From positions 791,850 to 855,849 of the forward strand of contig OZ257249.1 of NCBI GenBank assembly GCA_965279565.1: a stretch of 64,000 nucleotides of DNA, written 5' to 3'. A program made the translations under genes and the position numbers. Below, one piece after another: positions 61,835 to 62,630 of the stretch. Numbering within the stretch: position 1 is the stretch's first letter; each line of letters opens with the position of its first letter. The stretch is from Tagaea sp. (GTDB lineage: Bacteria; Pseudomonadota; Alphaproteobacteria; CACIAM-22H2). The notes under the pieces were generated by a model that saw only the letters and a program-made list of their open reading frames with translations, did not search any database and had not been told where the DNA came from.

Positions 61835-62630
61835 ACCATCGTTTCCGGTAAGCGAAAGCGAGGAGACGACGACACGGCAGCGATCCTTCTCCAGCGCGTC
61901 CCGTAGCTAGGACGCGATCCACTGGCAGGAGCCGGCCCCGAAAGGGTGGCGGCGCGGGAAGGACGGGGTCGGGGCGTTTCTCCGGAGCGGTCGGCGGAGG
62001 CCCGGTGCGAGCCGGGCGGAAGGCGGCAACTCCATTCCCTTCGCGACGGTCGGCGGGTTCCCCTGGGGGTCCGCCCACGTCAGCGCGGGGGGACGGCGTC
62101 GACGGATCCGCGCGATGCGGGGATTCAGGCCGACGGTCGGGGTCGCGAGGGTTCCGCAAGGGACCGGCAGGTGCGGCGGTGACGGCGGGGCGGACCTCAG
62201 GGGTCCAGGAACCCGCGATCGTCGGACAGGCTGCGAGGCACGCAAGGCAGGTGCGAAAGCGCCGTCGTGCGAAGCTCGCGCGAGGCTCGGGTCAGGTCTG
62301 GGACCGCGGAGCAGGCAAGGGTCGGACGTCTCGGGTTCGGGTTTCGGAGGGCCGCGCGTGGCCGCCGGGACCCTCGTCGGTGGGACGCGGACGGAATCGG
62401 GCGGACCAGGGCTCGACCGGACGTGCGAAGCAGGCCCATCGGGGGAAAGCCCGGGTTTCGGCTGCCATGAGGCGGCCGGCGGTCCCGCGAAAGCGGGGGT
62501 GTCGGTGGTGTCGGATCAGCGGCGTGCACGCCCGATCCGGCGGTCCTCGCGAGGCGTCAGGGAGCCCTTTGTCCCGCCCGGACAACGGCCGATCGCAAGA
62601 TCGCCCCTGGCGCCTCTTCATTTTTGGGGA
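61835..62630 (+). ncRNA. Candidate large structured non-coding RNA (~800 nt), family not recognised
   Basis: No credible ORF; G-rich on +; many GNRA-capped hairpins and nested long-range helices whose G-U pairs work only on the + strand; U-rich tail after the last helix. Confidence 0.65.

Follow-up and report, generated by a model that had tools for sequence, protein, structure and literature searches.

The window analyzed in this study is a 64,000-nucleotide (nt) stretch from the 4.13-Mb genome of a Tagaea sp. (G000:C1:791850-855849). It holds, in the gap of about 1.5 kb between sdhC and a gene for an RlmD-like methyltransferase, an element that is very probably a real, novel, structured, and independently expressed noncoding RNA (ncRNA). 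The data as a whole are best explained by a stand-alone ncRNA gene of about 770 nt on the + strand, the folded product of which would probably act in trans. A sequence-only reading of the window had placed an RNA at 61835-62630. The element proved to be real, and its start most likely lies near 61862 to 61867, not at 61835, as judged from the starts of contigs assembled from RNA libraries (see below). Besides the RNA, the gap contains a putative promoter region with direct repeats and a second, small element, here called module 2.

RESULTS

The fold of the element is kept by compensatory changes

When 61800-62660 was compared by BLAST with 40 related genomes, 18 of the 20 genomes of the genus proved to have the element, at 67 to 94% identity. 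Outside the genus, the same search gave only chance-level matches of 24 to 36 nt. A metagenome scan yielded 10 further contigs with the element. After de-duplication, 26 distinct full-length or near-full-length copies were available, including the window copy, and they fell into three clades.

The 26 copies were aligned with MAFFT (alignment A1, 894 columns), for which RNAalifold gave a consensus of 151 pairs. Structures beyond A1 were built with clade-wise RNAalifold folds and Infernal models. Standard pairs were found in 96.4% of the cells of A1, and 53 of the 151 pairs had changed on both sides. Shuffled controls gave 38.6 ± 2.4 such pairs, with none of 500 reaching 53, and slid partners gave 11 to 15. 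The region 62323-62482 was also realigned alone with MAFFT, without being fitted to a structure (A2). For the domain at 62331-62454, 91.1% of the cells in A2 paired, and both sides had changed in 20 of the 49 pairs (shuffles, 13.9 ± 1.3, 0/500 reaching 20; slid partners, 5 to 8).

MAFFT failed on the 5' domain between clades because three helices there differ entirely in sequence among the clades. A covariance model of this domain (R2) was therefore built from nine sequences (A4), all from the window's clade and none from the other two clades, and all 26 copies were then aligned to it with Infernal. The other clades took the same six helices, with 90.4% of the cells paired and both-side changes in 27 of 41 pairs (shuffles, 20.2 ± 1.8, 0/500 reaching 27; slid partners, 6 to 11). 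Many compensatory changes were thus present in the related genomes. Judged from these alignments, the predicted fold has been kept through compensatory change, and at least four domains are supported by covariation.

Domain architecture of the RNA

In a working model, the RNA and its parts, from 5' to 3', are as follows.

61862-62640, + strand: large structured RNA as a whole, about 770 to 780 nt; 5' end from the contig starts in RNA runs, 3' end from the terminator-like junction and U-rich run
61862-61983, + strand: 5' domain, with the outer helix 61862-71/61975-83, two more stacked helices, and a junction with three hairpins
61984-62094, + strand: two arms, one of nested stems (61984-62033) with a tip hairpin at 62000-17, the other at about 62034-62094
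62095-62330, + strand: central domain, closed by the long-range helix 62096-100/62325-29
62331-62454, + strand: most conserved domain, with the outer helix 62331-35/62450-54, a hairpin arm (62339-73), and a long arm (62374-62445)
62460-62548, + strand: linker, with an invariant small hairpin 62464-66/62471-73 (strand GCUGCCA), a GAAA hairpin (62483-98), and a hairpin at 62509-42
62551-62640, + strand: 3' three-way junction and U-rich run, with a 12-bp stem (62551-62/62605-16) and a T-rich run (62617-40)

The helix 61884-91/61956-63, one of five long helices proposed from the sequence alone, is one of the stacked helices of the 5' domain, and 6 of the 10 pairs of the extended helix covary. The three hairpins of the domain have a conserved AGCU in the loop (61895-61916), an invariant loop ACUGGCA (61918-30), and a GAAA loop (61931-53), respectively; 61937-46 lies at the tip of a hairpin of nine pairs, four of them covarying. 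In the window copy, the minimum free energy (MFE) fold of the 5' domain has the same topology as R2. Another proposed helix, 61839-46/61862-69, was not conserved: at five of its eight positions, only 5 to 16 of the 26 copies paired, and 61862-69 pairs with 61975-83.

The two arms at 61984-62094 aligned less well between clades, so that the pair counts there are partial. Their helices were predicted in the same alignment columns in the three clades from different sequences, and this holds for the GNRA hairpin at 62000-17. The helix 62036-45/62084-93, which encloses a hairpin at 62052-75 in the second arm, was partly supported; for instance, 62037/62092 paired in 26/26 copies (CG in 20, UA in 5, and UG in 1).

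All the cells of the helix closing the central domain paired in the 26 copies, with a change from GC to AU in 10 of them and from UA to CG in 5. The interior of this domain includes the helices 62124-30/62296-302 and 62138-43/62285-90, an invariant helix (62233-37/62275-79), and a hairpin (62250-63) in which three of the four pairs had changed on both sides. In the GCAA hairpin at 62150-65, 100% of the cells paired, and four of the six pairs covaried. A helix proposed at 62130-39/62216-25 failed here, with 5 to 14 of 26 copies paired at four of its ten positions. In the most conserved domain, the outer helix paired in all copies, and GC was replaced by AU at two positions in 9 of them; the tip hairpin of the long arm has an invariant loop, GGACCAGG, and is flanked by an invariant strand, GUGCGAAGCAGG.

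In the linker, the GAAA hairpin (62483-98, proposed as 62484-97) was predicted in the window's clade only, and the sequence from about 62509 onward is paralogous to the start of module 2. The strand CUGCCA (62462-67) may contact the loop ACUGGCA (61921-27) of the 5' domain. Five pairs of this contact are standard in 26/26 copies and one varies between UA and UG; since no pair changed on both sides, the contact is a candidate only.

The 12-bp stem of the 3' junction encloses the arm GCC..UGUCC-CGCCC-GGACA..GGC (62564-89) and a GCAA hairpin (62590-603). The junction is near-invariant in 24 to 26 copies, with a single varying pair (UA in 16 and UG in 8). The stem and the GCAA hairpin are thus present as proposed; the hairpin never varies and therefore says nothing either way. 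A T-rich run follows the stem in every clade, with varying sequence and length.

Altogether, the six GNRA-capped hairpins of the sequence-only reading were found in the sequence where it had located them, and five of the six appeared in consensus or clade folds, those at 61937-46, 62150-65, and 62250-63 with covarying pairs. Among its five long helices, three held (one fully, one partly, and one as an invariant stem) and two were not conserved. Two other candidates for long-range closure were rejected. The helix 61845-48/62476-79, suggested by RNAalifold, does not hold in one clade, and its 5' strand falls 5' of the contig starts in the RNA runs. The helix 61858-64/62543-50, from single-clade folds, differs in register between clades.

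Strand and folding energy

The consensus helices contained 449 G-U cells versus 35 A-C cells. Therefore, the RNA is read from the + strand, the polarity already deduced from G-U pairs in the window copy. Between 61900 and 62550, the + strand has a GC content of 0.73 to 0.76 and a GC skew of about +0.2, unlike the flanks.

The folding energies pointed to the same strand. The + strand of 61835-62630 folded to -443 kcal/mol (z = -3.46; 0/20 shuffles as good), versus a z of +0.28 for the - strand (14/20 shuffles as good). For the 5' domain, z was -2.26 on the + strand (5/200 shuffles as good) and -0.47 on the - strand; for the domain at 62331-62454, the values were -1.14 (25/200 shuffles as good) and +0.42, respectively. 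The 3' junction stood out on the + strand, with an MFE of -40 kcal/mol and a z of -5.59 (0/200 shuffles). Folding energy alone is suggestive, not decisive, and it is the comparative data that decide.

The gene is noncoding and matches no known RNA family

No frame on either strand was open in all 26 copies. Among 424 pairwise gap runs relative to the window copy, 273 were single bases and 41 were multiples of 3. The four longest open reading frames (ORFs) in the gap matched 0 Pfam families. These results showed that the gene is noncoding, and the claim that the gap is without a credible protein-coding gene was borne out.

The models of Rfam 15 (4,227 in total) include GOLLD, ROOL, OLE, HEARO, raiA, group I and II introns, tmRNA, and SRP. 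A cmscan search of 58000-64000 with E values up to 1 gave three sub-threshold matches, none of them in 61580-63066. When six homologous loci (24,136 bases) were searched with E values up to 5, there were three unrelated sub-threshold matches and none in the element. RNase P RNA (RF00010) and 6S RNA (RF00013) were rejected as identities; the genome has its own copies at C1:67935-68324 (294.4 bits, above the cutoff) and C1:2056523-2056680 (57.1 bits), respectively, and neither model matched the element. ARAGORN found 0 tRNA or tmRNA genes in 61400-63200. The absence of RNase P and tmRNA hallmarks, which had been read from the sequence by eye, thus agreed with the searches, and so did the proposal of an undescribed large ncRNA. 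Full-text searches of the main texts of freely accessible papers turned up no account of this RNA. As far as these searches reach, the element is a new RNA family without a detectable relative.

Outside the gap, the + strand at 58064-58142 has a terminator-like GC-rich hairpin followed by a U-run. This hairpin caused two of the sub-threshold Rfam matches (mir-3926 and Xoo2), names that arose by chance.

Within the gap, RNA-library contigs lie only in the element

Parts of the stretch were found in 22 public runs from 15 studies. Six of these runs are labeled RNA, with 15 to 18% of the sampled words; as run shares under 0.2 were set aside for this purpose, habitats were named for the four runs examined and no others. 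The contigs of these four runs, three metatranscriptomes from different studies (sediment, biofilm, and freshwater) plus one run that was guessed to be RNA, were placed on 61400-63200.

All the contigs on the gap in the four runs lay within 61862-62577. No contig was found in 61583-61826 or 62620-63100, module 2 included, and these flanks are conserved enough for placement. Contigs show presence and not absence, so that the uncovered flanks are a weak hint about the borders of the transcript. The contigs were 44 to 652 nt long, and the 652-nt contig was wholly inside the element (61917-62567). Contig starts were found at 61862, 61867, 61870, and 61877, and one contig had an adapter-like tail right before 61867. 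The contig depth (83 for one element contig versus 3 to 6 for sdhC contigs) cannot rank genes and was not relied on. This pattern of unstranded contigs, confined to the element in the three labeled runs and the guessed one, is what a discrete, stable RNA would give, and it supports the expectation that the element is transcribed.

The 5' part of sdhC (61400-61582) was covered by contigs from two metatranscriptomes. These contigs stop near 61540 and continue into unlike sequence, and they therefore come from the sdhC genes of other organisms.

Putative promoter region and 3' end

Two conserved segments precede the RNA.

61720-61765, + strand: putative regulatory repeats, with CTGTGGA at 61720-26 and 61732-38, 12 nt apart
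61774-61861, + strand: promoter-proximal blocks, with CATCAACAAGATTCTG at 61774-89, GATT..ATTG at 61803-14, TTTGAGACC at 61829-37, and GGYAAGCG at 61847-54

The CTGTGGA repeats lie about 100 to 145 nt upstream of the 5' end of the RNA, and further TGTG-containing copies follow about 12 and 24 nt beyond the pair. The two copies are near-invariant (17/18 and 18/18 aligned genomes), while the bases between them vary, and the pair occurs once in the 4.13-Mb genome. The promoter-proximal blocks consist of invariant or near-invariant columns without paired partners. The stretch 61774-61861 has no contig from the four runs, although its conservation would allow placement at 85% likeness. We infer that 61774-61861 contains the promoter of the large RNA. 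At the other end, the 3' junction and the U-rich run form a putative intrinsic terminator.

Closer to sdhC, at 61655-61682, the blocks GATTTAGACC and CGTCAAT are near-invariant (at least 17/18 at their positions) in 18 aligned genomes, and they are kept even where the surrounding sequence has diverged. They are candidate promoter or regulator sites of sdhCDAB.

Genomic setting and distribution

The minus strand of the window carries sdhA, sdhD, and sdhC (Pfam matches FAD_binding_2, 7e-123, and Sdh_cyt, 1e-19 and 9e-37). The start codon of sdhC, an ATG, is at 61578, and the Sdh_cyt match at 9e-37 belongs to this gene. On the other side of the gap, the + strand ORF of the RlmD-like methyltransferase begins at 63067. 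Its top match in NCBIfam is RlmD (6e-63, full length), under the curated cutoff. The element is single copy in the genome. It adjoins sdhC in the same orientation in 17/17 loci that reach far enough, and it is divergent from sdhCDAB in every genome. The 3' motif had 0 matches in viral contigs. The setting is thus a housekeeping one, not a phage, as had been suggested.

A scan of species-representative genomes for the 3' motif (21 bases) gave 19 loci, mostly in Tagaea sp. or in unplaced or differently labeled alphaproteobacterial metagenome-assembled genomes. One of the 19, on the Bacillota contig L024, has the motif once in unrelated sequence; L024 was not listed by the nhmmer profile of the RNA, and the hit was rejected as chance. 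A covariance model of 62323-62482 (R1; 159 positions, 49 pairs) matched 18 of the 20 genomes of the genus, with E values from 1e-18 to 4e-25. R1 matched 0/29 genomes from 14 other genera of the family (an order-level draw gave the same 50 genomes) and 0/150 genomes sampled across the class, save for one match at an E value of 0.097; the large R1 searches were run with stricter Infernal filters. Among the genomes searched, the RNA is confined to a single genus.

Two loci from genus members, L031 and L038, retain sdhC and module 2, and both the CTGTGGA repeats and the RNA are missing. In L031, the unit of about 1 kb is replaced by about 60 unrelated nt, with no duplication at the borders. The unit is likewise absent from L038; the breakpoints were mapped in L031 only. 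Since the repeats, the RNA, and the T-run are present or absent together, they behave as one gene unit, which was most likely lost twice. The RNA is therefore not essential.

A paralogous small module lies downstream

62653-62815, strand unassigned: module 2, about 160 nt, with a long hairpin (62653-92), a three-way junction (62701-67), and a C-rich tail

Module 2, a noncoding element, is 80 to 98% identical across the genus. It was found in 19 of the 20 genus genomes, and the two that lack the large RNA are among these 19. It was found in 0/29 genomes of other genera of the family and had no Rfam match. Its layout of a hairpin and a three-way junction is the same as that of the last 100 nt or so of the large RNA, and its junction carries the same GCC..UGUCC-CGCCC-GGACA..GGC arm as the 3' junction of the RNA. 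The two also have a 26-nt direct repeat in common. A local alignment of the 3' part of the RNA (about the last 100 nt) with module 2 had 44/67 identical positions and a score of 30, and shuffled controls scored 10.9 ± 1.9, with a maximum of 18 in 500. With model R3, the second-best match in the whole genome was 62509-62611 (21.3 bits; E value of about 1).

Module 2 differs from the large RNA in its size, in standing alone in two species, and in the strand signature of its first hairpin. Read on the + strand, this hairpin (62653-62692) has 25 A-C versus 5 G-U cells, which is a - strand signature, and the junction has 9 G-U versus 3 A-C cells, leaning toward the + strand. The segment 62653-62767 folds better on the - strand (-66.7 versus -55.6 kcal/mol). 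The presence of a paralogous small module alongside suggests an origin of the large RNA within the genus, by growth from a small three-way-junction RNA or by capture of one.

Some variation was seen at and around module 2. At the columns of alignment A6 that correspond to 62790-62812, one clade has a terminator-like hairpin of a G-run and a C-run with a U-rich run after it. The window's clade has a C/U-run there in place of the G-run and thus no hairpin, only a long C-rich single strand. In L020 (L019 and L020 are the loci of genomes G016 and G001), module 2 lies about 700 nt further downstream of the RNA, with an unrelated insert between them. In G016, module 2 is on a different contig from the large RNA.

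DISCUSSION

Weight of the evidence

The interpretation as a stand-alone, folded, trans-acting ncRNA gene has several points against it. The structure scored on A1 was derived from A1 itself, and the R2-based alignment (A5) was fitted to the structure of its model, so that both sets of counts lean toward structure. The 26 copies represent three clades, and the both-side changes therefore trace to few independent events; the shuffle control ignores this relatedness. The 3' junction and several helices are invariant and contribute no covariation evidence. Taken alone, the domain at 62331-62454 folds no better than shuffles, and the folding advantage of the 5' domain is modest. The RNA evidence consists of assembled contigs, from which strand, true ends, and level cannot be read; DNA may have been carried over into the RNA libraries, and one of the four runs was only guessed to be RNA. 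Two of the 20 genus genomes, G006 (94% complete) and G008 (96% complete), gave no match to the RNA, and neither did the other genera searched. It is thus dispensable in some lineages and either young or fast evolving. Consensus scans gave 0 sigma-70 promoter sites and 0 simple terminator sites, and such scans are uninformative for a nonconsensus promoter and a branched terminator; the terminator scan reported none because it accepted only loops of 3 to 8 nt, and the stem here closes a three-way junction. Finally, action in trans and as a scaffold is among the inferred points, not the demonstrated ones.

A possible mode of action

Transcription of the gene would run divergently from that of sdhC and would be driven by a separate promoter region with the unique array of CTGTGGA direct repeats. 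A DNA-binding regulator may read these repeats and set the expression of the RNA. Transcription would end at the very stable stem of the three-way junction followed by the U-run, and the RNA would accumulate as a discrete, stable species. It may then act in trans as a compact scaffold, in a ribonucleoprotein or an RNA-only assembly, as other large ornate bacterial RNAs do. The compensated long-range helices, the GNRA loops, the invariant unpaired strands, and the apparent stability point to a compact trans-acting scaffold, ribonucleoprotein, or catalyst; the scaffold mode in particular is put forward tentatively, at somewhat less than even chances. The RNA probably works neither through simple antisense pairing nor as a cis-acting leader.

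Each of the known large classes has been instructive for biology or structure: they include ribozymes, the ribonucleoproteins of OLE, and the RNA-only cages of ROOL and GOLLD. OLE, GOLLD, and ROOL are distributed in Firmicutes, lake or rumen lineages, and phages. The Tagaea element belongs with large ornate ncRNAs in the descriptive sense, being longer than 500 nt, with a multidomain structure supported by covariation and no coding potential. Like OLE, GOLLD, and ROOL, it is hundreds of nucleotides long and noncoding, with a covarying multidomain fold, many GNRA tetraloops, and invariant unpaired strands, and its sequence occurs in RNA libraries (as contigs only). Unlike them, it was found in one alphaproteobacterial genus, at a fixed site beside sdhC and not in a prophage. 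GOLLD, ROOL, and OLE are described as forming RNA-only homo-oligomeric complexes (PMC12286853). The element also resembles the RNase P and 6S RNA genes in being a single-copy chromosomal gene for a stable structured RNA with its own putative promoter and terminator, but it is about twice as long as RNase P RNA and is absent from two congeners.

Alternative explanations

The element might be a regulatory RNA that acts through titration or base pairing, either as a sponge of an RNA-binding protein or as a long small RNA (sRNA) whose loops ACUGGCA, GGACCAGG, and CGCCC pair with targets such as the sdh mRNA. Several loops and strands are indeed invariant in 26/26 copies, the gene is divergent from sdhCDAB in every genome, and its promoter region looks regulated. 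However, such RNAs do not normally keep compensated long-range multidomain folds, seen here in the 53 of 151 pairs changed on both sides. The invariant ACUGGCA loop has a conserved partner strand within the RNA, so that a tertiary contact is as good a reading of this loop as a seed. We regard this explanation as improbable.

The element might instead be a giant cis-acting leader or attenuator that senses a signal and uses the three-way-junction terminator to control read-through into module 2 and the downstream gene. Its terminator-like end, the paralogous module that comes next on the same strand, and the RlmD-like + strand gene that follows in the window's clade would all fit. The downstream gene, however, is not conserved. 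The RlmD-like gene is adjacent in one clade only, that of the window; L031 has a gene with a cyclase domain and L045 (clade C) one for an FkbM-type methyltransferase, both convergent on the - strand. A gene that differs between clades argues that the element is not a leader. In addition, no contig of the four runs continues beyond 62577, a weak point because contigs are the only data, and we know of no leader of about 770 nt with four covarying domains. The leader explanation thus appears quite improbable.

There is very little probability that the element is a remnant or a part of a replication or mobile element, such as a G-rich primer-type transcript (similar to ColE1 RNA II) or the RNA of an integrated element. 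The upstream repeats, which we take to resemble the core of the DnaA box, the strong G-richness of the transcript (GC skew of +0.2), and the presence/absence polymorphism of about 1 kb speak for it. Against it, the element is single copy at a constant chromosomal site beside sdhC, the L031 indel has neither flanking repeats nor a target-site duplication, no mobile-element gene was seen among the neighbors (sdhC to one side and an RlmD-like, cyclase-domain, or methyltransferase gene to the other), and no viral contig matched. A replication origin at the locus was likewise rejected. The cumulative GC-skew minimum is at about 1.06 to 1.12 Mb, roughly 200 kb from the locus at 0.853 Mb, and TGTGGA is not clustered at the locus beyond two copies and marks no obvious oriC.

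A protein-coding gene or pseudogene of unusual composition has next to no probability: long open frames do exist on both strands (e.g., 309 amino acids on the + strand), as expected at 73 to 76% GC, but none is open in all copies, all the + strand frames of L007 and L014 have at most 147 codons, gap runs are mostly of single bases, 0/4 ORFs are in Pfam, and the substitutions are compensatory across helices.

Significance

To our knowledge, very few of the described bacterial RNA classes exceed 500 nt and have complex conserved folds, and large ncRNAs have rarely been reported among the housekeeping genes of high-GC alphaproteobacterial chromosomes. The evidence for the stand-alone ncRNA gene described here is unusually clean for a candidate, with multidomain covariation, a clear strand, promoter- and terminator-like elements, and contigs in RNA libraries from several habitats. 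Congeners without the gene offer natural "knockouts," and the small paralogous module hints at its origin. A bolder and rather unlikely possibility is that the RNA belongs to a new class of large RNAs with catalytic or self-assembling properties, as a ribozyme or an RNA-only nanostructure of the ROOL/GOLLD type, and was recently elaborated from module 2 in this one alphaproteobacterial genus, with its synthesis tied to replication or growth via the CTGTGGA array. If the elaboration from module 2 is true, it would give a rare view of a large structured RNA born from a small one. The restriction to one genus limits generality, yet it makes the element a tractable case of recent RNA structural complexity.

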